A stretch of DNA of 53,855 nucleotides, from contig JAEYUN010000011.1 in NCBI GenBank assembly GCA_023432475.1, positions 1 to 53,855 on the forward strand. The letters are read 5' to 3'. Under the pieces are notes generated by a model. That model saw nothing but the letters and a program-made list of their open reading frames with translations. It ran no database searches and had not been told where the DNA came from. Shown one piece after another: positions 931 through 41,049 of this stretch (position 1 is the stretch's first letter; every line of letters begins with the position of its first letter). Source of the stretch: Candidatus Parcubacteria bacterium (GTDB lineage Bacteria > Patescibacteriota > Saccharimonadia > Saccharimonadales > Saccharimonadaceae). Position numbers and translations under genes: made by a program.

Positions 931-1332
931 TTAGCGCTTCGAGAACTGTTCGCGCTTGCGAGCCGAACGCAGACCATACTTCTTGCGTTCTTTTTCGCGT
1001 GGATCGCGTTTGAAGTGACCGGCTTTTTTGAGCGAGGCTTTCATAGTTTCGTCCATTTCGCCGATTGCTTTGCTGATAGCCAGCTTGGCAGCGTCAACCT
1101 GACCGCTAGTACCACCACCTTTGATAACCAGGCTGACGTCAAATTCTTTTTGCTTACCGACAAGAGCTAGTGGGTCGGTTAGCTCGGCTAGTTGAGTAGT
1201 GTTGCCGTTGAAATATTCTTCAGCCGGTTTGCCGTTGACAACAATCGCCCCTTTGCCGCCGCTTAGGCGGGCGCGGGCGGTCGCTTCTTTGCGGCGGCCT
1301 AGACCGTAGAAATAGCTATTTGCTTTTGCCAT
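931..1332 (-). CDS. rpsI: 30S ribosomal protein S9
   Basis: MAKANSYFYGLGRRKEATARARL...KKYGLRSARKREQFSKR. Canonical S9 ends; lies directly after rplM. Confidence 0.97.
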   Translation of the reverse strand: MAKANSYFYGLGRRKEATARARLSGGKGAIVVNGKPAEEYFNGNTTQLAELTDPLALVGKQKEFDVSLVIKGGGTSGQVDAAKLAISKAIGEMDETMKASLKKAGHFKRDPREKERKKYGLRSARKREQFSKR

Positions 1333-1333
1333 A

Positions 1334-1765
1334 TTACTTTACCTCCAGTTTAACTGGCTTTTGGGCTTCGTGAGTATGCTCTGACCCTGCGAAAACACGC
1401 AGGCGAGCCAAACGCTCGGGAGCTAGTTTGTTCTTTGGAACCATACCGCGGACAGCTTTTTCGATAACCTTAGTGACATCGAGCTCACGAACTTCTTTAA
1501 GGCTGCGCGACTTGATGCCACCCGGGAAACCGCTGTGACGGTAATAGGTTTTGGCTTCTTCTTTGTTGCCGGTGACGATCAGTTTGGCGGCGTTGATAAC
1601 GATAACGTAGTCACCGTCGTCGACATGCGGCGTGAAAGTCGGCTTGTATTTGCCATTTAGACGAGTAGCGATAAAGCTAGCCAGGCGCCCCAGGGGAGCG
1701 TCGGAAGCGTCAACCAGTACCCATTTGCGGTCAATATCGGCAGATTTGAGTGAAAAAGTTTTCAT
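1334..1765 (-). CDS. rplM: 50S ribosomal protein L13
   Basis: MKTFSLKSADIDRKWVLVDASDAPLGRLAS...; L13 signature and the rplM-rpsI pair. Confidence 0.97.
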   Translation of the reverse strand: MKTFSLKSADIDRKWVLVDASDAPLGRLASFIATRLNGKYKPTFTPHVDDGDYVIVINAAKLIVTGNKEEAKTYYRHSGFPGGIKSRSLKEVRELDVTKVIEKAVRGMVPKNKLAPERLARLRVFAGSEHTHEAQKPVKLEVK

Positions 1766-1767
1766 GG

Positions 1768-2211
1768 TTATTTCTCCTCCGCTTTCTTGGCGGTCTTTTT
1801 AGGAGCTTCTTTCGGGGTGGCGGCGGGTTTGTCGGCTTCTTTGACGGCAGATATGTCGTCGACAAAGCTGATTTGGGCTAGCTGAGCATTGTCGCCGACG
1901 CGCAACTTGGTGCGCTTGATGCGCAAGTGACCGCTGGTGCGAACAGTTAACTTCGGTGCGATTTCGTCCACCAGTTTCTGAGCTGCGTCGATAGTCGACA
2001 GGCCGCCAATAACTTGACGACGGTTATGCAGGTCACCCTTTTTAGCTTTGGTGATGAGTCCTTCGACATAAGGCAAGACTTCTTTAGCTTTTGGCAAAGT
2101 CGTCTCGATAGTGCCGTAGGTCACCAAGCTAGTAGCCAAACCCTTGATAAGAGCCCGGCGAGGGCCAGCTTCGCGGCGGAATTTACGTCCTTTATATCCG
2201 TGTCGGTGCAT
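1768..2211 (-). CDS. rplQ: 50S ribosomal protein L17 with Lys/Ala/Pro-rich C-terminal tail
   Basis: MHRHGYKGRKFRREAGPRRALIKGLATSL...; follows rpoA as in the alpha operon. Confidence 0.96.
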   Translation of the reverse strand: MHRHGYKGRKFRREAGPRRALIKGLATSLVTYGTIETTLPKAKEVLPYVEGLITKAKKGDLHNRRQVIGGLSTIDAAQKLVDEIAPKLTVRTSGHLRIKRTKLRVGDNAQLAQISFVDDISAVKEADKPAATPKEAPKKTAKKAEEK

Positions 2212-2214
2212 AAA

Positions 2215-3138
2215 CTAGAACTCCATCTCCGCTAGGGCGTCCTTGACCTCGTCAAGCGCTTTGCTACCAAAGCCCTTCAGTTCACGCAAATCTGATTCAC
2301 TTAAAGTAACCAGGTCATTAATGGTGCGGATGTCGTTGTTAATAAGCGCGTTGGTAGTGCGAGCGCTGAGATTCAGCTCTTCGATAGGCATCATCAGCTT
2401 ATTAGCACTGTCACTATCGTTACCGACCAGGCTTGGAGCGGCTTCGATAGTGGTCGAGCCGGCCAGGGCCGTGTATTGGTTAACCAATATAGCGGCGGCT
2501 TCTTCGAAAGCGTCTTTTGGTGTCATCGAACCGTCGGTATCGATGGTGAGCAGCAGCTTGTCGAGGTTGGTGATTTGACCGACGCGGGTGTTTTCAACCT
2601 TGTAACGAACACGCTGAACCGGGCTGAAGAAAGCGTCAAGGGCAATCATATCACTGTGAATACGCTTGTTGCTGGATTCTTCAATAGTGCGGTAACCACG
2701 ACCGGTCTCAACGACCAGGTGGATTTTAACGCTAGCTTTAGGATCGTCGATAGTACAGATAACGGCTTCTGGGTTAATTACCTCAACGTCAGCCGTCAAC
2801 TTAATATCGCCAGCCGTAACTGCACCAGCACCTTTTTTCTCCAAAGTCAGCTCAACCGGTTCGTCACTAGCGGAACGCAAGTGAACCCCTTTGAGGTTTA
2901 GCATGATATCGACGACATCTTCTTTAACACCTTTAATAGTGGTGAATTCGTGGGTGACACCTTCAACGCGAAACGCAGTGAAAGCAGCACCAGCTATGCT
3001 AGACAGTAAGACGCGGCGAAGGCTATTGCCCAGTGTCATACCATATCCAGCGTGCAATGGTTCTACAACAAAGGTAGCACTGGTGGCATTGTGCTCGTCA
3101 ATGCGAGCGAGTGTTGGGTTGTGAATTGCTTGTGACAT
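2215..3138 (-). CDS. rpoA: DNA-directed RNA polymerase subunit alpha
   Basis: The ORF-track ORF is 2215..3174. I prefer the ATG at 3138 (MSQAIHNPTLARIDE...), which is preceded by AGGAAGG. The longer ORF would overlap the rpsD stop. The C-terminal domain ...NLSARTTNALINNDIRTINDL... is present. Confidence 0.93.
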   Translation of the reverse strand: MSQAIHNPTLARIDEHNATSATFVVEPLHAGYGMTLGNSLRRVLLSSIAGAAFTAFRVEGVTHEFTTIKGVKEDVVDIMLNLKGVHLRSASDEPVELTLEKKGAGAVTAGDIKLTADVEVINPEAVICTIDDPKASVKIHLVVETGRGYRTIEESSNKRIHSDMIALDAFFSPVQRVRYKVENTRVGQITNLDKLLLTIDTDGSMTPKDAFEEAAAILVNQYTALAGSTTIEAAPSLVGNDSDSANKLMMPIEELNLSARTTNALINNDIRTINDLVTLSESDLRELKGFGSKALDEVKDALAEMEF

Positions 3139-3154
3139 CTCTTTAGCCTTCCTT

Positions 3155-3772
3155 TTAGCGTGAGTAGTACTCAACGATTAGTTGTTCGTTAATATCCGCT
3201 TCGGCATCTGCACGAGTTGGCAGGCCGGTTATCGTGATAGTCATTTTTTTCGGGTCGCTCTTGAACCAGCCGAACGTCGGTTGGTTAGCGTCTTTAATAA
3301 CCTCATCTAGACCCGAGAAGTACCCGCTTTTAGTGCTTTTAGGACGAACTGTTAGCACGTCGCCAGCTTTTAGGCGAATTGACGGAATGTCGACGCGGCG
3401 GCCGTTCAACATAAAATGGCCGTGCCCAACCAGTTGGCGGGCAGCTCGTCGGCTCAGGGCAAACCCAGAGCGGTAAACGACATTGTCCAAGCGACGCTCG
3501 AGTAGTTGCAGCAGATTCTCGCCTGATTTGCCTTCCTGGCGGGTGGCTTCTTTCATAAGCAGGGAGAATTGTTTTTCCAGTAGGCCGTATAGACGACGAA
3601 CTTTCTGCTTTTCGCGTAACTGCTGGGCGTACATACTAACCTTACCTTGGCGGTCTCGGCTGTGTTGACCAGGTATACCGCTTTTGCGGGCCATGATTTT
3701 GTGCGCTTTAGGGTGTAGGGCGTAGCCCTCCCGACGACTTTGCTTAACAATAGGGTCGCGATCTCGTGCCAT
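3155..3772 (-). CDS. rpsD: 30S ribosomal protein S4
   Basis: MARDRDPIVKQSRREGYALHPKAHK... The start at 3772 abuts the rpsK stop (3774); the ORF-track extension to 3811 would overlap rpsK. Confidence 0.93.
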   Translation of the reverse strand: MARDRDPIVKQSRREGYALHPKAHKIMARKSGIPGQHSRDRQGKVSMYAQQLREKQKVRRLYGLLEKQFSLLMKEATRQEGKSGENLLQLLERRLDNVVYRSGFALSRRAARQLVGHGHFMLNGRRVDIPSIRLKAGDVLTVRPKSTKSGYFSGLDEVIKDANQPTFGWFKSDPKKMTITITGLPTRADAEADINEQLIVEYYSR

Positions 3773-19148: not shown

Positions 19149-19439
19149 CTAAATAACGATGCCAACTGGCAAGAAATAACTCAGCAATGTCATGATAATC
19201 AAAATAGCGTATTCTATCTTACGATCAACCTGCAGCTTATCCCTTGAAGCCAGGAGCAGACCCACGAAAAGACCGAGTGGAAAACCGTGGAAAACCAACG
19301 GGCCCAGCTGCAACGGAACACTAAATTTCAACCAGAACGCCCCAAGCATCATGTAGACAACAAGCTTTAAAAAATAGATCGAATCCGGCTCGCTCAGCAC
19401 TTGCCTAACCGAGCGTCGGCGTGTTTGTTTTTTAACCAT
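19149..19439 (-). CDS. hypothetical small membrane protein, 96 aa
   Basis: MVKKQTRRRSVRQVLSEPDSIYFLKLVVYMMLGAFWLKF...; 3 predicted hydrophobic helices by eye. Composition matches the host genes. Confidence 0.65.
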   Translation of the reverse strand: MVKKQTRRRSVRQVLSEPDSIYFLKLVVYMMLGAFWLKFSVPLQLGPLVFHGFPLGLFVGLLLASRDKLQVDRKIEYAILIIMTLLSYFLPVGIVI

Positions 19440-33647: not shown

Positions 33648-33794
33648 CACACATCAGTTTAAACATCTATTTTCAGCCTTTAGTGATATTCGTCTGGCGC
33701 CGAAGTTCACTAGGGGTGGCTCTGCAACGCAAAAACGCCTCGCCAATAGCGTGCGTCGACAGTGAGCCAGCCTATACAATCTTCATTAATTACT

Positions 33795-33823
33795 ACTCTA
33801 GTGGCTGGTCTAAATTATGTCAA
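33795..33823 (-). promoter_or_regulatory. candidate rpoB promoter TTGACA-17-TAGAGT (a second TTGACA lies 25 bp upstream at 33843-33848)
   Basis: Minus strand: TTGACA (33823-33818) taatttagaccagccac TAGAGT (33800-33795). This implies a 5' UTR of about 210 nt. Confidence 0.45.
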
Positions 33824-33858
33824 GTATTTATAGCTTAAATGTTGTCAAATTAAAACAG

Positions 33859-33917
33859 GCTCCTGCAGTATACTCCGGTCATCGCCTCGCGATGCCATCT
33901 CTATATACTACAGGAGC
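33859..33917 (-). terminator. nested hairpin after the two-gene orphan module
   Basis: Outer arms GCTCCTGcAGTATA (33859-33872) / TATACTaCAGGAGC (33904-33917), 13 of 14 bp. Inner stem CATCGC ctc GCGATG (33880-33894). On the minus strand it is followed by CTGTTTTAATTT. Confidence 0.6.
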
Positions 33918-33937
33918 TTTCTCCCTACCCCTCAGGT

Positions 33938-34051
33938 TCAGTCGTAGTCGATCATCGGCGGGAACTCGTCGCTTCTGTCGAACTTGAACTTCAGCCACAA
34001 CCACGGGTGCCGCCACCACGTCGGCGTCGGCGTGATTTCAGGACCATACAT
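33938..34051 (-). CDS. hypothetical Trp-rich micro-protein, 37 aa
   Basis: Not in the ORF track. Own translation: MYGPEITPTPTWWRHPWLWLKFKFDRSDEFPPMIDYD. A strong GGGAGGAG SD lies 7 nt upstream of ATG 34051, and the gene starts 25 nt after the upstream gene's stop. Confidence 0.55.
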   Translation of the reverse strand: MYGPEITPTPTWWRHPWLWLKFKFDRSDEFPPMIDYD

Positions 34052-34076
34052 CTGATAACTCCTCCCAGAGCCGTCC

Positions 34077-34304
34077 CTACGCCTCGTCTTGATACCCTTC
34101 TTTGGGCAGGCGGCGATGGCCGTGACGCACCACGGACCACGCCTTGTAGACCCCGTAACGCCACATCATGGGCAGCTTTTTGTAAAGCTTGCGTCCCAGA
34201 ACGGCTAGGGCATCCCAGAGAACACTCCGGGCTATTAGTGTCCCGTCCTTCTTGCGCAGCTGGGCTGCGACATCACGGAACGTGACTTCACTTGAATTAT
34301 TCAA
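34077..34304 (-). CDS. hypothetical basic protein, about 75 aa (orphan, GC-rich)
   Basis: TTG at 34304 lies 4 nt after GGGAGG. The ORF-track start at 34337 is also TTG but has no SD. Sequence (L/M)NNSSEVTFRDVAAQLRKKDGTLIARSVLWDALAVLGRKLYKKLPMMWRYGVYKAW... Confidence 0.5.
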   Translation of the reverse strand: MNNSSEVTFRDVAAQLRKKDGTLIARSVLWDALAVLGRKLYKKLPMMWRYGVYKAWSVVRHGHRRLPKEGYQDEA

Positions 34305-34399
34305 ACGTCCTCCCAAGCTCGAGTGACCGTGATCCAAAAACCGATAACCCGTTTATGCGAGCCATCGACCTTTCTAGGTAAATATTATAACACTTATAG

Positions 34400-34990
34400 C
34401 TACTTTAAGCTAGAGATAACCTTATCGGCGATGCCATAACTAACGGCTTCTTTTGCATCCATCCAAAAGTCACGCTCCATGTCGGTTTTTACTTTGGAAG
34501 GCTTTTGACCGGTAGCTCTAGCCATAATATCTATAAGAACTTCTTTGGTACGAACTGATTCACGAAGGCTAATTTCTTGATCGGTAACCTGGCCGCGCGT
34601 CCCCCCATGGGGTTGATGCATCATAACGCGTGAGTTGGGCAGGACGAATCGCTTGCCTTTAGCACCGCTGGCTAGAAGTACCGCCCCAAAACTTGCCTGT
34701 AGACCAATACCATAAGTAGCAACGTCAGGCTTGATAAAATTCATCGTATCAAAAATAGCTAACCCGTCATAAACACTGCCGCCCGGGCTGTTAATATAAA
34801 GTGCAATGTCCTTCTTCGGGTCTTCATAGGCTAGGTGTAATAGCTGAGCCACCACAATATTAGCGGTGTGTTCGTTGACTTCTTCGCCGAGAAATATAAT
34901 CCGTTCTTTCAAGAGTCTGGAATATATATCAAAAGCCCGTTCGCCGTCGTAATTCTTTTCAATAACTGTCGGTACCAAATAGTTCTTCAT
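34400..34990 (-). CDS. clpP: ATP-dependent Clp protease proteolytic subunit
   Basis: ...[22 protein letters not shown]...[18 protein letters not shown]...MMHQPHGG...; Ser-His-Asp ClpP core; GGAGG SD. Confidence 0.98.
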
Positions 34991-35019
34991 GATGATCCTC
35001 CGTGAGTTGATCTAATTGT

Positions 35020-35056
35020 AAATCAAAATTAGCACTCATGCAAGTTGAGTGCTAAT
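35020..35056 (-). terminator. canonical rho-independent terminator just upstream of clpP
   Basis: Minus strand: AGCACTCA acttgca TGAGTGCT (8-11 bp), followed by AATTTTGATTT. Confidence 0.7.
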
Positions 35057-35073
35057 AATTGTGCCTATGGGAA

Positions 35074-35096
35074 GCGCCCGCCGTAACGGCGAGCGC
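35074..35096 (-). terminator. GC-rich hairpin without U-tract after the 67-aa TM gene
   Basis: GCGCcCGCCG taa CGGCGaGCGC. Confidence 0.45.
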
Positions 35097-35107
35097 TGAC
35101 ACCCGGT

Positions 35108-35311
35108 TCAGTGACGTATTGGGCGGCGAACGCCGCGAAGCTCTCGGAGGATTAACCAGATGCCAATCCCGATTATGAGCGCTAGAGCAACCAGCCCGAA
35201 CACGTTGACCATTTGGGGGAGACTCAGGCTCCCCAACCAGGTCCAAACCCTCGGCGCATGCTGAGCTAGCGCCAAGATCATTAGAACGGCCAAGAAAGCC
35301 TTGAATTTCAC
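35108..35311 (-). CDS. small membrane protein, 67 aa, 2 hydrophobic helices (GTG start)
   Basis: (V/M)KFKAFLAVLMILALAQHAPRVWTWLGSLSLPQMVNVFGLVALALIIGIGIWLILRELRGVRRPIRH. A GGGAGA SD is present, downstream of a consensus promoter. Confidence 0.6.
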   Translation of the reverse strand: MKFKAFLAVLMILALAQHAPRVWTWLGSLSLPQMVNVFGLVALALIIGIGIWLILRELRGVRRPIRH

Positions 35312-35348
35312 CTTTTCTCCCTATGTCGAGGAACGAGTGTACTTTTCT

Positions 35349-35377
35349 AGTATAGCATAAGTACTTTGTGTTGTCAA
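35349..35377 (-). promoter_or_regulatory. consensus promoter TTGACA-17-TATACT
   Basis: Minus strand: TTGACA (35377-35372) acacaaagtacttatgc TATACT (35354-35349) agaaaa GTACAC. Confidence 0.7.
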
Positions 35378-35387
35378 TATATGGTGA

Positions 35388-35410
35388 GCGCCCCGGAAAT
35401 TCCGAGGCGC
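35388..35410 (-). terminator. GC-rich hairpin after the 84/86-aa TM gene pair
   Basis: GCGCCcCGG aaatt CCGaGGCGC on the plus strand (8 of 9 bp); no U-tract. Confidence 0.4.
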
Positions 35411-35424
35411 TTGACACCCGTACT

Positions 35425-35685
35425 TCAAAGTTGCTTGAGGTCACGGCGGCGACCAGCCTCCAGAGCCACATATACGGTGGCGATCAGACTGGCGTTCAAC
35501 AAGACAGACACAGTCCCTGCTCTGTCTGGTTCAGGAACCCAGGCTGTTACCACGATCGGCCAACCTAGAGCCATCACAGCGACCAGCCAGGCGACGGTAT
35601 AAATGCGGTGCTTAACCGCAAACCATACAGCCGCGAGACAGACCAGCGTCGGGCTAGCGTAATACGCCAGCAGCGACAGAGTCAT
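35425..35685 (-). CDS. small membrane protein, 86 aa, about 3 hydrophobic helices
   Basis: MTLSLLAYYASPTLVCLAAVWFAVKHRIYTVAWLVAVMALGWPIVVTAWVPEPDRAGTVSVLLNASLIATVYVALEAGRRR... Its ATG overlaps the upstream gene's stop (ATGA). Confidence 0.6.
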   Translation of the reverse strand: MTLSLLAYYASPTLVCLAAVWFAVKHRIYTVAWLVAVMALGWPIVVTAWVPEPDRAGTVSVLLNASLIATVYVALEAGRRRDLKQL

Positions 35686-35933
35686 GATGGATCCTCCCTA
35701 GTCTTCCTGCCAGCACGCCCAGCCATGACCAGCAGAGCTACAAGACAGCACGCGATAGCGACTGCTGTCAGATTCTGCCAGGATCGACCCACGAGCAGCC
35801 CGATGAGCAGGAATGCATCCAGCAGGCTACGCTGGAAGAGATTCAGCACGACAGCGAACGCAATCGCCGACGTAGACCACCTGATCAGGTTGGTCTTGTT
35901 TCTTTCGACGAACGCGTGGTAGCGCTTGTACAT
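35682..35933 (-). CDS. small membrane protein, 83 aa, 2 hydrophobic helices
   Basis: ATG at 35933 lies 5 nt after GGAAGGAG. Sequence MYKRYHAFVERNKTNLIRWSTSAIAFAVVLNLFQRSLLDAFLLIGLLVGRSWQNLTAVAIACCLVALLVMAGRAGRK... Confidence 0.6.
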   Translation of the reverse strand: MYKRYHAFVERNKTNLIRWSTSAIAFAVVLNLFQRSLLDAFLLIGLLVGRSWQNLTAVAIACCLVALLVMAGRAGRKTREDPS

Positions 35934-35986
35934 CACTTCTCCTTCCAGGAGATTGGCTGATTTTTTAGGTACAGGTGTACTTTTTT

Positions 35987-36015
35987 ATTATAGCACGGTT
36001 GGCGTTATTTGTCAA
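35987..36015 (-). promoter_or_regulatory. consensus promoter TTGACA-17-TATAAT
   Basis: Minus strand: TTGACA (36015-36010) aataacgccaaccgtgc TATAAT (35992-35987) aaaaaa GTACAC. Confidence 0.75.
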
Positions 36016-36095
36016 TCTATTAACCAGATTTTAGAAGGGTTGCGCCCGCCAGTCCGAAGACTGGCGGGTAGCGTTACCGAGGCGGTTTAACTTGA

Positions 36096-36341
36096 CTAGG
36101 TAATAGTTTCGAGCTTCTTGAGTGTTCGCCAGAAGGCGAAGATGAAGATGACGAGAACAATCATCACACCTATCACCCACTGGGCCCCCGCCCAAGCTAT
36201 TACCGCAACCACTCCCACTGGGAATGATGAAAGCCCGAGGACAAAACGAGCCCTCCCGTCAGCCGTCAAGTATGTCAGAAGCAGTAGTATGAATGCTACT
36301 GCACTTGTCAGGACGGCTAATACCAACCAAGCAGCGACCAT
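36096..36341 (-). CDS. small membrane protein, 81 aa, 2-3 hydrophobic helices
   Basis: MVAAWLVLAVLTSAVAFILLLLTYLTADGRARFVLGLSSFPVGVVAVIAWAGAQWVIGVMIVLVIFIFAFWRTLKKLETIT. A GAGAGGA SD lies 8 nt upstream. Confidence 0.6.
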   Translation of the reverse strand: MVAAWLVLAVLTSAVAFILLLLTYLTADGRARFVLGLSSFPVGVVAVIAWAGAQWVIGVMIVLVIFIFAFWRTLKKLETIT

Positions 36342-36399
36342 GTCAAAATTCCTCTCGGCGACGTCGATGTCGCATAGAACTACGGTAAACGCACTTTTT

Positions 36400-36428
36400 A
36401 CTATAGTCGTTTAGGATAACCGCTGCAA
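36400..36428 (-). promoter_or_regulatory. promoter TTGCAG-17-TATAGT, 3 nt downstream of the tig stop
   Basis: Minus strand: TTGCAG (36428-36423) cggttatcctaaacgac TATAGT (36405-36400). Confidence 0.55.
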
Positions 36429-36431
36429 ACC

Positions 36432-37706
36432 TTAACTGTTTAGTTCAACCAGTCTAGCCAGAGTTTTTTCAGTAATAACGCGGTTAGCCAGGTCGCGGCG
36501 GGCATCTGGCGCATCGAGTTGTTCTTTCATATTAGGATACTGGGCTAGCATTTCAGCGTGACGAGCATCGAGTTCGTCGCGGCTAACATCTATATTTTCA
36601 ACTTTAGATAGTTCAGCTAAGACCAAGCCTGACTGTACCCGGCGAACTGCTGCCGGTTTGAATTCTTTTTCGCTCAGCTCGTCTTCGTCCTTATAGCCCA
36701 TTTGTTCGATGTATTGTTCGGCGCTCATGCCACGGTACATCAAGTTTTGACGGAAATCTTGTTCAACACTTCTTATTTGGTCATCAACTAGTATGTCGGG
36801 TACTGGCACATGTGAAGCTTTGACGAGCGCACCTAGCAGATCATCTTTAAACTTTTCGTCGGCTTGACGCTCATTTTGGGCAGTTAGTTCCCGCTCGATA
36901 TCCTCGGTCAATGCTTTTAGACTCTCGAATGGTCCAACTTTGGCTGCCATAGCGTCGTTCACTTCAGGTACGGTAACCTGCTGGACTTTTTTAATAGTCA
37001 CCTCGAAAACGACTGCTTGACCTTTGAGGTGTTCAGCGTGGTAATCTTTCGGAAATTTCAACGGTACTTCAAATTTATCACCTGGTTTATGACCCACAAT
37101 AGCTTCTTCAAAACCCGGTATGAACGTGTTCGAGCCAAGGGTCAGGTCATAGTCGCTTGCCGTGCCACCCTCAAAAACCTCATCGTTTTTCTTGCCGATA
37201 AAGTCAATTGTTACTTCGTCACCATTCTCGGCCGCTCTTTTAACTTCTTTTTTCTCAGCTAGGTTTTTCTGCAGACGCTCAATAACTTCGTCAATGTCGG
37301 CTTTTTCAACTTTTTTTAGCTCGCGCTTGACCTTAAGATGTTTATAATCACCCAGTCTAATGTCAGGTATGATGTCAATAACAGCTTCGAATTCCAGTTC
37401 GGTATAGGGTACAAATTTCTTAACGTCGATCTTAGGCTGGTCAAGGACGCGCAGGGATTCGATGGCAATAATTTCGTTTAATGCTGCGTTGATGGCATGC
37501 TCAGCAACTTCGTTGGCGAGCAAGTTAGGGTCGAGGTTTTTTTCAGCGACATTGGCCGGTACTTTACCTTTACGAAAACCGGACACTTTAATGTCGCGCG
37601 CCAAATGCTTGAGGCCAGTAACTTTAGCTTCTTGTAAGTCTTCAGGACTTGTCGCAACCGTGACACTCACGGACGAGTCGGATAATTTTTTGAGGGTATG
37701 TTTCAT
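36432..37706 (-). CDS. tig: trigger factor
   Basis: 424 aa. ...VSGFRKGKVPANVAEK... at the N-terminus, an FKBP-type middle region (...FIPGFEEAIVGHKPGDKFEV...), and a helical C-terminal domain. Confidence 0.93.
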   Translation of the reverse strand: MKHTLKKLSDSSVSVTVATSPEDLQEAKVTGLKHLARDIKVSGFRKGKVPANVAEKNLDPNLLANEVAEHAINAALNEIIAIESLRVLDQPKIDVKKFVPYTELEFEAVIDIIPDIRLGDYKHLKVKRELKKVEKADIDEVIERLQKNLAEKKEVKRAAENGDEVTIDFIGKKNDEVFEGGTASDYDLTLGSNTFIPGFEEAIVGHKPGDKFEVPLKFPKDYHAEHLKGQAVVFEVTIKKVQQVTVPEVNDAMAAKVGPFESLKALTEDIERELTAQNERQADEKFKDDLLGALVKASHVPVPDILVDDQIRSVEQDFRQNLMYRGMSAEQYIEQMGYKDEDELSEKEFKPAAVRRVQSGLVLAELSKVENIDVSRDELDARHAEMLAQYPNMKEQLDAPDARRDLANRVITEKTLARLVELNS

Positions 37707-37750: not shown

Positions 37751-39070
37751 CTAGAAGTCGTCTGGAGATTTACGCCGATAATCTTGGATAGTGGTGATAA
37801 TTCTCTCTAAACCAGCTTCAGTCTCCGCCTCGGTCTGGATGTCTTTGAGGCGATAAACTTCTTCAGCAGCTTCTTTTTCGCCAATAAAGAGCAGGTAAGG
37901 TATTTTCATTTTTACAGCAGCTTTGATCTGTTTATCGACTTTGCGACCTGTTATATCGACAGCCACCTTGACGCCTTCGGCACGTAGGTCATATGCGACT
38001 TTTTCAGCATGTTTCATGACATCACCGAGCACCACCACATAAACGTCAGTGGTCGAACCGAGTTCCGGTACTAAATCGTGAGCTCGAAGAAACTCCTCAG
38101 TCGTAGTCGCTCCCGGAGCCACCCCCACTACCGGCATAGACTCGCCACCGAACAGAGTAACCAAACCATCATAACGACCTCCGCCGAACATTGCCCGGTT
38201 ATTGTCAGGATGGTTATCAAATACCTCAAATACCATTCCGGTGTAATAGTCCAGGCCGCGCATGAGCGTAATGTCAAAGCGGGCGTTAGTAATGCCCGAT
38301 TCACCCAAAAGGGTAAATAACCTTTGAATTTCGCGGACAGCTTCGCTGTCGAGAATCTCCTGGGGGAGTTCGGCCATAGTAGTAGCGCTGACCAGTTTGG
38401 CTATCTTGCGTAATCCCTCCTGAACGTATTCAGGTTCAAATATCTCACTAGCCTGGTCGCGAAATTGCTCGTTGCTTATCTTGCCGCGTTTATCGAACAG
38501 TTTAATCATTAGCTGAGACTGAACAGCGTCAAGGCGTAAATACTGCGCCATCATAAAGTTGATTAGGTTACGGTTGTTGATACGTATGGTGTACATGTCA
38601 CGTTTAGCGCCAAAAGCCTGCATAACAGCGTCGCTAACACGGATAACTTCGGCATCAGCCACTGGACCCTCGACGCCAAACATATCGACGTTCAGCTGCC
38701 AAAACTCACGTTCGCGACCTTTTTGCGGTCTCTCATAGCGCATAAAATTGGCAATCGAATAAAGTCGTGCTGGCATGCCGAGTTCTTGCTGGCGAGCCGC
38801 CACCATACGAGCTATGCTAGGAGTCATTTCTGGTCGGATCGCGACATTACGCCCACCGCGATCGGTAAACTGATAAGTCTGTTCGTTGACTATTTCCTGC
38901 CCTGATTTGGCGGCATATATTTCCAACGGCTCTAAAAGCGGAGCGCCGTATTCTTCGTAGCCAAACCTCTCAACCACCAAACGCCAGGTCTCAAAGATGT
39001 AGTTTTGCAACCGCTTGTCGGCCGGATAATAGTCGCGTGCACCTTTGTAGCTTTGGGTGGAAAGATTCAT
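37751..39070 (-). CDS. hisS: histidyl-tRNA synthetase
   Basis: ...YKGARDYYPADKRLQNYIFETWRLVVERFGYEEYGAPLLE...RYERPQKGREREFWQLNVD...GGGRYDGL...; class-II motifs. Confidence 0.95.
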   Translation of the reverse strand: MNLSTQSYKGARDYYPADKRLQNYIFETWRLVVERFGYEEYGAPLLEPLEIYAAKSGQEIVNEQTYQFTDRGGRNVAIRPEMTPSIARMVAARQQELGMPARLYSIANFMRYERPQKGREREFWQLNVDMFGVEGPVADAEVIRVSDAVMQAFGAKRDMYTIRINNRNLINFMMAQYLRLDAVQSQLMIKLFDKRGKISNEQFRDQASEIFEPEYVQEGLRKIAKLVSATTMAELPQEILDSEAVREIQRLFTLLGESGITNARFDITLMRGLDYYTGMVFEVFDNHPDNNRAMFGGGRYDGLVTLFGGESMPVVGVAPGATTTEEFLRAHDLVPELGSTTDVYVVVLGDVMKHAEKVAYDLRAEGVKVAVDITGRKVDKQIKAAVKMKIPYLLFIGEKEAAEEVYRLKDIQTEAETEAGLERIITTIQDYRRKSPDDF

Positions 39071-39078
39071 CAGATGTT

Positions 39079-39107
39079 ATTGTTGCATCTTTACCTCGAG
39101 ATTGCAA
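39079..39107 (-). promoter_or_regulatory. promoter TTGCAA-17-AACAAT, 8 nt from the hisS ATG (leaderless geometry)
   Basis: Minus strand: TTGCAA tctcgaggtaaagatgc AACAAT aacatctg ATG(39070). Confidence 0.4.
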
Positions 39108-39117
39108 GGAAAAGCAG

Positions 39118-39657
39118 TTATGTTTTAGGACGGATTTTTAACCACTGATACATGGCGATTCCGGCAGCTACACCAACGTTCAAGCTGCGGGTACTACCAA
39201 GCTGTTCTATATATCTAATCTCGTCGCTCAGCCTTAATAGTTCTTGAGATATACCATTAGCCTCTGAACCAAATACAAGCACGCAGTTAAGTGGGAAGTC
39301 AGATTGCGAGAGCGGTTTTGAGTCGACGTTGTTTTCAATTGCCACAATAAGCCGACCTGTCTTCTTCATCTCGTCGACAAACTCTTGAACGCTTGGGTAA
39401 TAGTGAACATGCAAGTATTTGTCGGTCATCATGGCGCCACGCTTATTCCACTGACGGCGGCCGATAATATGAACATGACGTACGCCAAAAGCATTGGCCG
39501 ACCGGACAATTGTACCCATGTTATAGTCGCGTTCAATATTTTCTACGGCAATATGTAGCCCAACGCCACACCTGTCTAGCTCCTCGACGATCTTTTGGTG
39601 CGGCCAACCTTTGAATTTGTCCACCACATTGCGGCTGTCTTCCATGCTGTATATCAT
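39118..39657 (-). CDS. SpoU/TrmH-family RNA 2'-O-methyltransferase
   Basis: ...NMGTIVRSANAFGV...VFGSEANGISQELL...IEQLGSTRSLNVGVAAGIAMYQW...; SPOUT knot motifs. The start is uncertain: ATG at 39657 is preferred, because the ORF-track start at 39729 would leave only 16 nt before the divergent tRNA. Confidence 0.8.
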   Translation of the reverse strand: MIYSMEDSRNVVDKFKGWPHQKIVEELDRCGVGLHIAVENIERDYNMGTIVRSANAFGVRHVHIIGRRQWNKRGAMMTDKYLHVHYYPSVQEFVDEMKKTGRLIVAIENNVDSKPLSQSDFPLNCVLVFGSEANGISQELLRLSDEIRYIEQLGSTRSLNVGVAAGIAMYQWLKIRPKT

Positions 39658-39745
39658 AAACCACCAAAGATAATAACTATAGTCAGCCTTCTCTTGGCGA
39701 CAAGAGTTTGTTACAATGTACGTGCTCAATCCCTAATAATCACGT

Positions 39746-39830
39746 GCGGCGGTGGCGGAATTGGTAGACGCGCTAGCCTTAGGAGCTAGTACCGCAAGGT
39801 GTGGAGGTTCAAGTCCTCTCCGCCGCACCA
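39746..39830 (+). tRNA. tRNA-Leu (anticodon UAG), long variable arm, CCA encoded
   Basis: GCGGCGG acceptor paired with CCGCCGC+ACCA. Anticodon stem CTAGC/GCTAG with loop CTTAGGA. Variable arm TACCGCAAGGTGT. T-arm GGAGG TTCAAGT CCTCT. Confidence 0.9.
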
Positions 39831-39871
39831 CAAAGAGAAAACCGGACATACTGTGTCCGATTTTCTCTTTG
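39831..39871. terminator. long bidirectional hairpin between tRNA-Leu and the convergent 389-aa gene
   Basis: CAAAGAGAAAAcCGGACA tactg TGTCCGaTTTTCTCTTTG: 17 bp with one mismatch. Confidence 0.8.
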
Positions 39872-39879
39872 TGTAAACT

Positions 39880-41049
39880 TTACTCACCCGTGATAGGCGT
39901 CCCTGTTTCGTGCCAAACATTACCTGAGCGTGTACTTCCGGGGCTAGCGCCATAGAAAATCAGCGCTTGTAGACTTCCACACTGCGGTGCATAAACTGTA
40001 GAGAAACGATTATTAAGGATTTTGATGTTGTTTATGAGGTGGCCAAAAGCGGCTAGGTTTGGGTCACTTATATCCGCTCGAACACAGATCGATCCACCCG
40101 CCACGACGTTATTTTGGAAAGTATAGTTCGATACCGCCCAATAGTCATGGTAAAGGTTAGCCGACGACGAACACTGCGACCCCGCACATATAAATGTATT
40201 CCCACTGACGGTGTAGTTATTGCCGCCATGTGTACTGATAGCTGAACGATGTGAAGACGCAGTCGTGTACTGAGCATAAATATAGCTATTCGTAACTTCC
40301 ATGTTACCACCGACATAATCAAGATTAAGCTCGCCACTGCATACGCCGTCGGTTGTCGTGGTCGAACAGGGGTCACTACCCATCAGCATACCGCGCCCGA
40401 CGTTTTCAATTTTGACGTGATCAAAACGATGTACCCCAGTTTTCGGATGACAACGTTGATAGACGCCCCAATCCGTCTCGCCAACCGCGCTGTAATCGAT
40501 AGTGGTATATTCAACATTCAAACCGACCGGGCAAGCCGGCGAGGTATGCAGATTTTGGAAGTTGCGTCCGATATCAACTATGTACGTCACGGGTGACGTC
40601 GGCGCAATCTTGACGTCACGCACTGTCACATTATCATGATTAATCCGTAGCGTACCTTGAATACATAGATTCTCAATCACCTGACCATTGCTAGAGGTTG
40701 AAAATGTCCCGACATGAGTCGACGTACAAGCCTGACGAGCACCGGTATTACACGAGTTAGCGTAACCGACTAAGTTAGGTAATTGATAGCCGCCTGGCCC
40801 GACAGTTTCACAAGTATCGTTATTGGTAAATTTAATAGCTTGACCGCCCGAAGCAGAAGCGTCATTGACCAAGTTGGCATTCGTTGTCCGACTACCTGAC
40901 TCTGCTTGCAAACTAGAGGGTGAGGCTGCGTTGATATTGAGCGCAACGAAGAACCAAACACTAATCCCTAGTAAAATAGCTACTCCCCCGACATATACCC
41001 AAGGATTTTTGATATTAAGACGTTTTAAGAAGTTCCGTTTATGGGTCAT
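39880..41049 (-). CDS. exported/anchored protein, 389 aa, probable right-handed parallel beta-helix fold
   Basis: N-terminal signal/anchor ...NPWVYVGGVAILLGISVWFFVALNINAAS..., then repeated short beta-strand units rich in N/G/T/V (..NHDNVTVRDVKIA.., ..GNTFICAGSQC.., ..FQNNVVAGGSICV.., ..IKILNNRFS..). The fold call is inference. Confidence 0.7.
   Translation of the reverse strand: MTHKRNFLKRLNIKNPWVYVGGVAILLGISVWFFVALNINAASPSSLQAESGSRTTNANLVNDASASGGQAIKFTNNDTCETVGPGGYQLPNLVGYANSCNTGARQACTSTHVGTFSTSSNGQVIENLCIQGTLRINHDNVTVRDVKIAPTSPVTYIVDIGRNFQNLHTSPACPVGLNVEYTTIDYSAVGETDWGVYQRCHPKTGVHRFDHVKIENVGRGMLMGSDPCSTTTTDGVCSGELNLDYVGGNMEVTNSYIYAQYTTASSHRSAISTHGGNNYTVSGNTFICAGSQCSSSANLYHDYWAVSNYTFQNNVVAGGSICVRADISDPNLAAFGHLINNIKILNNRFSTVYAPQCGSLQALIFYGASPGSTRSGNVWHETGTPITGE

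Follow-up and report, generated by a model that had tools for sequence, protein, structure and literature searches.

The genes tig and clpP of a Candidatus Parcubacteria bacterium (GTDB family Saccharimonadaceae) are separated by a 1.4-kb spacer that carries four small genes for membrane proteins, here called A to D. The spacer lies on contig JAEYUN010000011.1 (assembly GCA_023432475.1), of which positions 1 to 53,855 were analysed; this whole stretch is referred to below as the window. The spacer is made up of three autonomous mini-operons, each with a promoter, a Shine-Dalgarno sequence, one or two open reading frames (ORFs) for membrane proteins and a GC-rich hairpin. We consider it probable, with moderate confidence, that the locus is an old, variable slot for small membrane proteins in one subclade of the Saccharimonadaceae, and not the product of a mobile-element insertion. 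An earlier note on this DNA had observed the four ORFs correctly but read them as an inserted island that had stranded the terminator of tig. That reading is largely wrong, and correcting it is the main practical value of the present analysis. The supposed terminator is a perfect copy of the controlling inverted repeat of chaperone expression (CIRCE), and it belongs to clpP. Saccharibacteria live as episymbionts with reduced genomes, and the majority of their lineage-specific genes have not been characterised.

Organization and coding capacity of the tig–clpP spacer

Read along the minus strand, hisS and tig are followed by the four small ORFs, clpP, a 75-aa ORF and rpoB. The closest relatives of the tig protein are found in metagenome-assembled genomes of Candidatus Saccharibacteria and Saccharimonadaceae (57–73% identity), and a metagenome scan with tig returned no relative closer than those of the GTDB set. 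The features of the spacer and its flanks are as follows.

36432–37706, minus strand: tig, the upstream flank (Trigger_N/FKBP_C/Trigger_C)
36400–36429, minus strand: unit 1 promoter, TTTGCA-18-TATAGT, 9/12 consensus positions, starting 2–3 nt after the tig stop
36096–36341, minus strand: gene A, 81 aa, three transmembrane (TM) helices, predicted N-out/C-in, basic tail RTLKKLETIT
36045–36068, minus strand: hairpin closing unit 1, GC-rich, 10-bp stem, no U-tract, −26.6 kcal/mol, z −3.95
35987–36015, minus strand: unit 2 (B/C) promoter, TTGACA-17-TATAAT, 12/12, with extended −10 TG
35682–35933, minus strand: gene B, 83 aa from its ATG, or 84 aa from a GTG one codon upstream
35425–35685, minus strand: gene C, 86 aa, three TM helices, its own ATG overlapping the B stop as ATGA
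35387–35411, minus strand: hairpin closing unit 2, GC-rich, no U-tract, −25.7 kcal/mol, z −6.1
35349–35377, minus strand: unit 3 (D) promoter, TTGACA-17-TATACT, 11/12, with TG
35108–35311, minus strand: gene D, 67 aa, GTG start
35073–35097, minus strand: hairpin closing unit 3, GC-rich, no U-tract
34400–34990, minus strand: clpP, the downstream flank (PF00574)

The layout described in the earlier note, with products of 81, 83+86 (ATGA-coupled) and 67 aa in three promoter-to-hairpin units and a first −35 box just past the tig stop, is thereby confirmed. A Shine-Dalgarno motif precedes each ORF. Hydropathy analysis likewise bears out that each protein consists of two or three hydrophobic helices followed by a basic C-terminal tail. 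By the positive-inside rule, A and C are predicted to have three TM helices in an N-out/C-in topology. Protein B has a strongly basic N-terminus that is predicted to be cytoplasmic, probably two TM helices (possibly three) and a basic tail, whereas D begins with a signal-peptide-like or TM helix (…LALA/QH) that is followed by one TM helix and a basic tail. Conserved motifs are VLNLFQRxLLDA in B and WxGSLSLP in D. AlphaFold predicts a bundle of three helices for C (residues 2–25, 29–49 and 55–85; pLDDT 82) and a single long helix for B (pTM 0.41), the latter model being uninformative. No paralogy is detectable among the four proteins.

Related contigs, given here as L numbers, were used to examine whether these ORFs are genes. 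L161 and L162 are contigs of the same species; L164 and L165 are two independent assemblies of a sister lineage from the same samples; L166 comes from a more distant relative, and L001 is a GTDB species representative. In L164 and L165 the order is tig-A-B-C. At the amino acid level, A is 88% and B 84% identical to the L164 orthologue. The ratio of nonsynonymous to synonymous divergence (omega) is 0.40 for A against L164, 0.21–0.25 for B and 0.15–0.23 for C, the value of C against L161 being 0.23. Taken as a set, the small genes give 0.23–0.40 against L164 and 0.15–0.5 across the comparisons with L164 and L161, and omega is below 1 in every case. Values of this size imply that the ORFs code for protein.

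The order in L166 is B(partial)-C-D-CIRCE-clpP. Its rpoB and clpP products are 97% and 84% identical to those of the window. In comparison, the identity of B is 48% (z 19), that of C with its L166 homologue P0005 is 41–42% along the entire length, and that of D is 43% (z 22.9; the L166 orthologue starts with ATG). Shuffle z-scores for B, C and D span 15–23. Synonymous sites have reached saturation in this comparison for rpoB as well as for the small genes (proportion of synonymous differences, pS, 0.67–0.78), and the ORFs nevertheless remain open in L166 with indels in frame only. Nonsynonymous divergence (dN) between the window and L166 is 0.47–0.66 for the small genes, 0.116 for clpP and 0.019 for rpoB, so that the small proteins evolve ∼25 times faster than rpoB at nonsynonymous sites.

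Homologues are otherwise sparse. Protein searches with A and B returned same-species and sister-lineage copies only, and a search with D gave no match. When C was searched against all representatives, P0005 was the one useful distant homologue; a second candidate, P0004, was rejected as a repeat-protein artefact. Comparison of A–D with the spacer ORFs of relatives (tblastn, blastp and small hidden Markov models) gave one convincing pair, A and an 85-aa ORF of L001 (z 6.4, 0/300 shuffles), and matches of B and D to a 68-aa ORF of L001 that are suggestive only. The four products are lineage-specific orphan proteins that are under purifying selection yet evolve very fast, and the genes are not private to this genome. 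The earlier note had asked whether relatives carry the same genes as an ordinary core block. They do in part, with B-C-D in L166 and A-B-C in L164, but the set is not uniform and its GC content at third codon positions (GC3) is raised.

It could be argued that the ORFs are not genes at all, and that the spacer is noncoding regulatory or structured DNA whose hydrophobic translations are a by-product of composition. The lack of database families for A–D, the empty protein search with D and the presence of antisense ORFs of 98–104 aa in the block are compatible with this idea. So is the treatment of D in the automatic gene calls shown, where it is either missing or supplanted by an overlapping ORF of 139 aa. 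However, frames, starts, Shine-Dalgarno motifs and the ATGA overlap are kept in L164/L166 despite saturated synonymous sites, indels are in frame, and omega is 0.15–0.5. The coding signal that the earlier note had proposed to look for is therefore present, and the noncoding explanation, which we regard as extremely improbable, is effectively refuted. The 139-aa ORF itself (35052–35471, present in one annotation) was rejected as a candidate gene. It runs across the hairpin after C, the D promoter and, in another frame, D itself, and its frame is broken in L166 by a 41-nt insertion.

A consensus scan for sigma-70 sites gave its two highest matches in the whole window at the B/C and D promoters. 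These promoters are at least as good as the 11/12 sites 5′ of a probable EF-Tu gene and of a ribosomal-protein operon, identities that we assume. Promoter-like sites are no more frequent in the region than in shuffled sequences (4 versus 4.5), and it is the quality of the matches that stands out. The description of all three promoters as textbook examples holds for units 2 and 3 and not for unit 1, whose score is given above (∼8/12 for the site as first written). The four genes are probably highly expressed, as far as promoter sequences can tell. Promoters that overlap or abut the tig stop are also present in L008, L009, L010 and L011, and the promoter scan found no promoter-like site on the opposite strand of the block.

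The three unit-closing hairpins have 10-bp stems with predicted energies of −24 to −27 kcal/mol, and the block holds three of the four such strong GC hairpins in the window. The remaining one (39829–39873, 19-bp stem) lies directly after tRNA-Leu (39746–39830, plus strand). A hairpin in the L011 spacer, CCCGCCAG...GGCGGG, resembles that of unit 1. The promoters of units 2 and 3 share a −10/leader module of 21–29 nt (TGCTATAMTNNAAAAGTACAC), and the hairpin flanks are also repeated between units. This repetition points to modular duplication as the probable source of the B/C and D units.

Several of these elements are retained in L166. The unit 2 hairpin is nearly identical there although synonymous sites are saturated, the unit 3 promoter and its 5′ leader GTACACTCGTTCCT are conserved, and the unit 3 hairpin is kept with changes in stem and loop. 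Near-identity of the leader over such a distance suggests that it may be functional. Relative to the window, L166 also carries a 41-nt AT-rich insertion (its positions 500–540) between the post-C hairpin and the D promoter.

A CIRCE element upstream of clpP

CIRCE is bound by the heat-shock repressor HrcA. The CIRCE/HrcA operator controls the class I heat-shock genes groESL and dnaK and, in some streptococci, also clpP. Two features precede clpP in the window.

35029–35055, minus strand: CIRCE operator, TTAGCACTC-AACTTGCAT-GAGTGCTAA, a perfect consensus match
35015–35043, minus strand: putative clpP promoter, TTGCAT-17-TACAAT, overlapping the loop and right arm of CIRCE, 25 nt upstream of the ATG

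The consensus of the element is TTAGCACTC-N9-GAGTGCTAA (quoted in PMC3842655). A scan of the window located the copy described above with 0 mismatches, and it is the sole match even when 3 mismatches are allowed (shuffle expectation 0.04). It sits 38 bp upstream of the clpP ATG. The putative clpP promoter was missed by the consensus scan, its −35 box matching at only 3/6 positions.

A perfect CIRCE is found upstream of clpP in L001, L003, L005, L009, L011 and L166, and in L081 one follows just after tig on a contig that ends before clpP. The layout of clpP promoter and CIRCE is conserved in L166, L001 and L011. L003 is informative, since its CIRCE is present upstream of clpP in a tig–clpP gap of only 88 bp. 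In L004, positions 1557–1593 upstream of clpP hold a variant CIRCE, CTAGCACTC-N9-GAGTGCTAG, in which the outer positions are changed in a compensatory manner.

The earlier note had taken 35020–35056 for a canonical AT-flanked terminator. A terminator pattern scan does report a hairpin at 35028–35056 (11 pairs, only 4 of them G-C, followed by TTTTGATTT; −15.1 kcal/mol), whose sequence is fully explained by CIRCE and the spacer of the clpP promoter. Because the element occurs upstream of clpP in relatives even where the gap is 88 bp, and with or without small genes, it is an element of clpP rather than a terminator displaced from tig. It thus gives no evidence for an insertion. Under our interpretation, this CIRCE acts as the HrcA operator of a predicted heat-shock-regulated clpP promoter, independently of the small genes.

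Like known CIRCE/HrcA operators, the element shows the consensus without deviation, overlaps the promoter of a proteostasis gene and is conserved in position among relatives. Unlike typical ones, it precedes clpP and not groE or dnaK, and its host belongs to the Saccharibacteria, for which we found no literature on HrcA. A perfect CIRCE at clpP in this clade predicts that the HrcA regulon includes the Clp protease.

Variation and probable exchange of the spacer among relatives

Among relatives, the distance between tig and clpP varies from 11 bp to 1.44 kb, and in several that lack small genes it is 11–93 bp. On a tree of tig sequences, occupied spacers fall in one Saccharimonadaceae subclade. 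In the outgroup the gaps are 11–77 bp, with the exception of L097 at 451 bp. The spacers of the subclade have the following contents.

Window, L164: the small genes described above
L011: a promoter (11/12) at the tig stop, followed by two ATGA-coupled TM proteins of 78+93 aa
L001: a homologue of A, then a 12/12 promoter and a GTGA-coupled pair of 68+83 aa
L005, L009, L010: one TM ORF each
L007: a 43-aa ORF
L008: 254 bp; promoter-like site at the tig stop, no convincing TM ORF
L003, L004, L006: nested in the subclade, without such ORFs

The statement in the earlier note that tig and clpP are normally adjacent is accurate for the several relatives with gaps of 11–93 bp. It does not describe the subclade, across which orthologues or analogues of the small genes fill the slot. 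A common ancestry of the whole gene set is suggested by position and architecture. Under the reading that we prefer, a long-standing slot, its genes would be gained, duplicated as modules, lost and exchanged by homologous recombination, with the exchange probably anchored on the conserved tig and clpP flanks.

A different account is that a foreign, GC-rich island carrying holin-like, exclusion, immunity or toxin genes was recently inserted before the terminator of tig. The short tig–clpP distances in many relatives are in keeping with this account, and so at first sight is the composition of the block. Its GC content is 53.2%, compared to 48.6% for the window and 47.9% for its own intergenic parts, and GC3 is 0.57–0.68 in A–D versus 0.43–0.51 in the flanking genes. 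The label of a GC-rich island is correct to that extent. However, the GC3 excess recurs in the equivalent genes of six of seven related genomes (L164, L166, L001, L011, L009 and L010, not L005), and its persistence across lineages with saturated synonymous sites argues against a signature of recent import. The gene for SecY, a membrane protein whose identity is assumed, has a GC3 of 0.55. The persistence of the excess in the small genes suggests a class effect or perhaps a recombination-associated bias.

Hallmarks of a mobile element were also sought. Apart from the four small TM ORFs, the 1.4-kb block holds no mobility gene such as an integrase or transposase, and no direct repeat or att site was found bracketing 35057–36431. 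A blastn search of the block against phages and plasmids gave no match, and neither did a scan of viral contigs with an alignment of C; PHROG and PADLOC matches are likewise absent. Together with the assignment of the putative terminator to clpP and the occupation of the same slot by orthologues or analogues across the subclade, these results argue against an insertion between tig and its original terminator. We consider a recently inserted island very unlikely. The one further observation in its favour, that the block resembles its counterpart in a co-occurring sister lineage far more closely than the flanking genes do theirs and hence moves between lineages, is described next.

Between the window and L164, hisS and tig have ∼80% nucleotide identity. 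Identity climbs to 94–98% in a tract that begins ∼90 nt before the end of tig and extends through the first half of A (88/90 positions in the tig–A spacer), and then stands at 82–92% up to the end of the contig. The pS for A+B+C combined is 0.21 (95% confidence interval [CI] 0.15–0.27), compared to 0.66 (0.58–0.72) for tig and 0.79 for hisS. Furthermore, the L164 and L165 contigs both end at the same point inside C, ∼120 nt in, which is the pattern expected where co-occurring, near-identical genomes collapse the assembly graph. Within the species, comparison of L161 with the window over 12.2 kb shows 31 differing sites, of which 29 fall within 35419–36091, a tract of ∼670 bp that covers the A–B spacer, the 3′ end of B and C. 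The 81 single-nucleotide polymorphisms (SNPs) of L162 are evenly spread. These patterns indicate that the locus is probably exchanged by homologous recombination; metagenome assemblies can be strain mosaics.

The similarity of the block to L164 could alternatively reflect selection at the nucleotide level, through GC3 bias and constraint on promoters and hairpins, without recombination. This would fit the GC3 skew of the small genes and the conservation of promoters, leaders and hairpins even in L166. In contrast, a three- to fourfold drop in pS with nonoverlapping CIs is too large for codon bias in a genome of this kind. The 94–98% identity also extends without distinction over the last ∼90 nt of tig, the tig–A spacer and the first half of A, and against L166 these genes have reached saturation. 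The break of both sister-lineage assemblies inside C, as expected for near-identical co-assembled genomes, is a further point for recombination. We therefore rate nucleotide-level selection as quite unlikely to be the explanation.

Homologous exchange at conserved flanks is reminiscent of capsule and O-antigen loci. There, as here, conserved genes (in this case tig and clpP) flank a content that varies between close relatives, and the region contains imported tracts and is less diverged between lineages than its flanks. Unlike such loci, the spacer is tiny (0.3–1.4 kb) and encodes orphan membrane peptides and no biosynthetic enzymes.

Several points weigh against the interpretation of the locus as an old slot with exchange and an HrcA-controlled neighbour. 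For nearly all pairs, homology between B, C or D and the spacer ORFs of L001, L011, L005, L009 and L010 is not detectable (z <3), and occupation of the same slot by the same kind of gene could mean independent gains instead of descent. A GC3 that is 0.10–0.20 above the flanks also fits repeated import from higher-GC donors. The SNP cluster of L161 could be an assembly mosaic of strains, although allelic diversity is implied in either case, and constraint at the codon or nucleotide level may account for part of the low synonymous divergence from L164. Promoter strength was gauged from consensus matches only. For CIRCE, the assignment is based on sequence match and conservation, and hrcA was not found among the ten neighbouring proteins that were scanned in the 54-kb window.

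Possible functions and neighbouring features

Family searches with A–D against Pfam, PHROGs, NCBIfam and PADLOC gave sub-threshold noise only. The best Pfam score was that of D with Phage_holin_2_3 (E 0.21, 12 bits versus a cut-off of 28.8). PHROGs gave nothing below E 0.6 for A–D, and PADLOC had no matches at E ≤1 for these four proteins or the product of the neighbouring 75-aa ORF. Sequence searches of the PDB found nothing, the best hit being CD47 (E 0.71). The structure search that the earlier note had recommended was equally uninformative, since the C model is a generic bundle for which Foldseek returned only MIT-domain-like bundles from the PDB at E >1.

Most probably, the products are accessory proteins of the cytoplasmic membrane or envelope that are present in large amounts. 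Because B and C are coupled through the ATGA overlap, they are probably made together and may act as a heteromer. Rapid turnover of the proteins would reflect interaction with a varying partner, such as the host surface, phages or neighbouring cells. In size class and in their presumed role as membrane subunits or modulators, the proteins are similar to AcrZ, KdpF, CydX, MgtS and SecG-like proteins, and the B/C pair suggests a complex. Unlike those proteins, they have no sequence or structure link to a known system and no adjoining transporter or respiratory operon.

A role in conflict has to be weighed against this assignment. Under this hypothesis, the proteins would confer immunity or exclusion, or would include membrane toxins and a cognate protector (e.g., B/C), and phages or competitors would drive their diversification. 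The genes could even so have resided at this site for a long time. The small size, multiple TM helices and basic tails of the proteins suit such a role. It is also consistent with very fast evolution (dN of 0.47–0.66 versus 0.02 for rpoB), allelic replacement within the species, exchange between lineages and a content that varies among relatives. However, every comparison gives an omega below 1, the neighbourhood contains no gene for a toxin, bacteriocin, endolysin or defence function, and neither an antisense promoter nor a PADLOC or PHROGs match was found. In addition, consensus promoters that are apparently unregulated are hard to square with a lethal pore-former. We consider a conflict role unlikely overall, immunity or exclusion being a serious alternative nonetheless. 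A holin, lethal toxin or pore-former in particular is unlikely because of these promoters, the purifying selection and the core housekeeping context.

Comparison with known systems gives a similar picture. The proteins share with phage holins and CidA/LrgA their small size, two or three TM helices and charged C-terminal tail. Unlike phage holins, they have no family match, no endolysin or phage context and constitutive-looking promoters, and they lie between core genes at a syntenic position. As in type I toxin–antitoxin systems (Hok, TisB, Fst, Ibs), small hydrophobic products are encoded in intergenic DNA with strong promoters and stable hairpins. In contrast to the toxins of those systems, which have <60 aa and one TM helix, the spacer encodes proteins of 67–86 aa with two or three TM helices, including a coupled pair, and no antisense promoter was detected in it.

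The locus is a candidate source of abundant membrane proteins of an episymbiont, given the strongest promoter signals in 54 kb, fast evolution and exchange between lineages, and it offers four new orphan families. Neither the small-gene locus nor the CIRCE of clpP overturns current understanding. A bolder proposal is that, in this Saccharimonadaceae subclade, the tig–clpP spacer is a dedicated hypervariable cassette site at which very strongly transcribed small membrane proteins are swapped by recombination between co-occurring episymbiont lineages. The proteins would then set strain-specific interactions at the cell surface (host range, exclusion of kin or phages, or immunity). We think that this proposal is doubtful. 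If it were true, such proteins would form a novel group of conflict or recognition determinants in ultra-small bacteria.

Other small or variable features occur in the vicinity. The spacer between clpP and rpoB (33650–34400) measures 750 bp and reaches 57% GC at 33900–34350; among relatives its length is ∼170 to 2900 bp. It contains the 75-aa ORF mentioned above (34077–34304, minus strand), which encodes a basic, nonmembrane orphan with a GC3 of 0.66, comparable to that of A–D, and no family matches. At the same position L166 has a 72-aa counterpart (31% identity) that is followed by a 36-aa TM ORF. A TTGACA-17-TAGAGT site at 33823 probably drives rpoB.

A second variable spot lies 2 kb from the block of small genes. 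When L164 (positions 1168–3513) is compared with the window (37751–41049), L164 has a NUDIX gene between hisS and a gene for a SpoU methylase, and it lacks both the 389-aa hypothetical gene found at 39880–41049 of the window and the tRNA-Leu region. The only other intergenic small hydrophobic ORF of the window encodes 96 aa at 19149–19439 on the minus strand, with a grand average of hydropathy (GRAVY) of 0.74.

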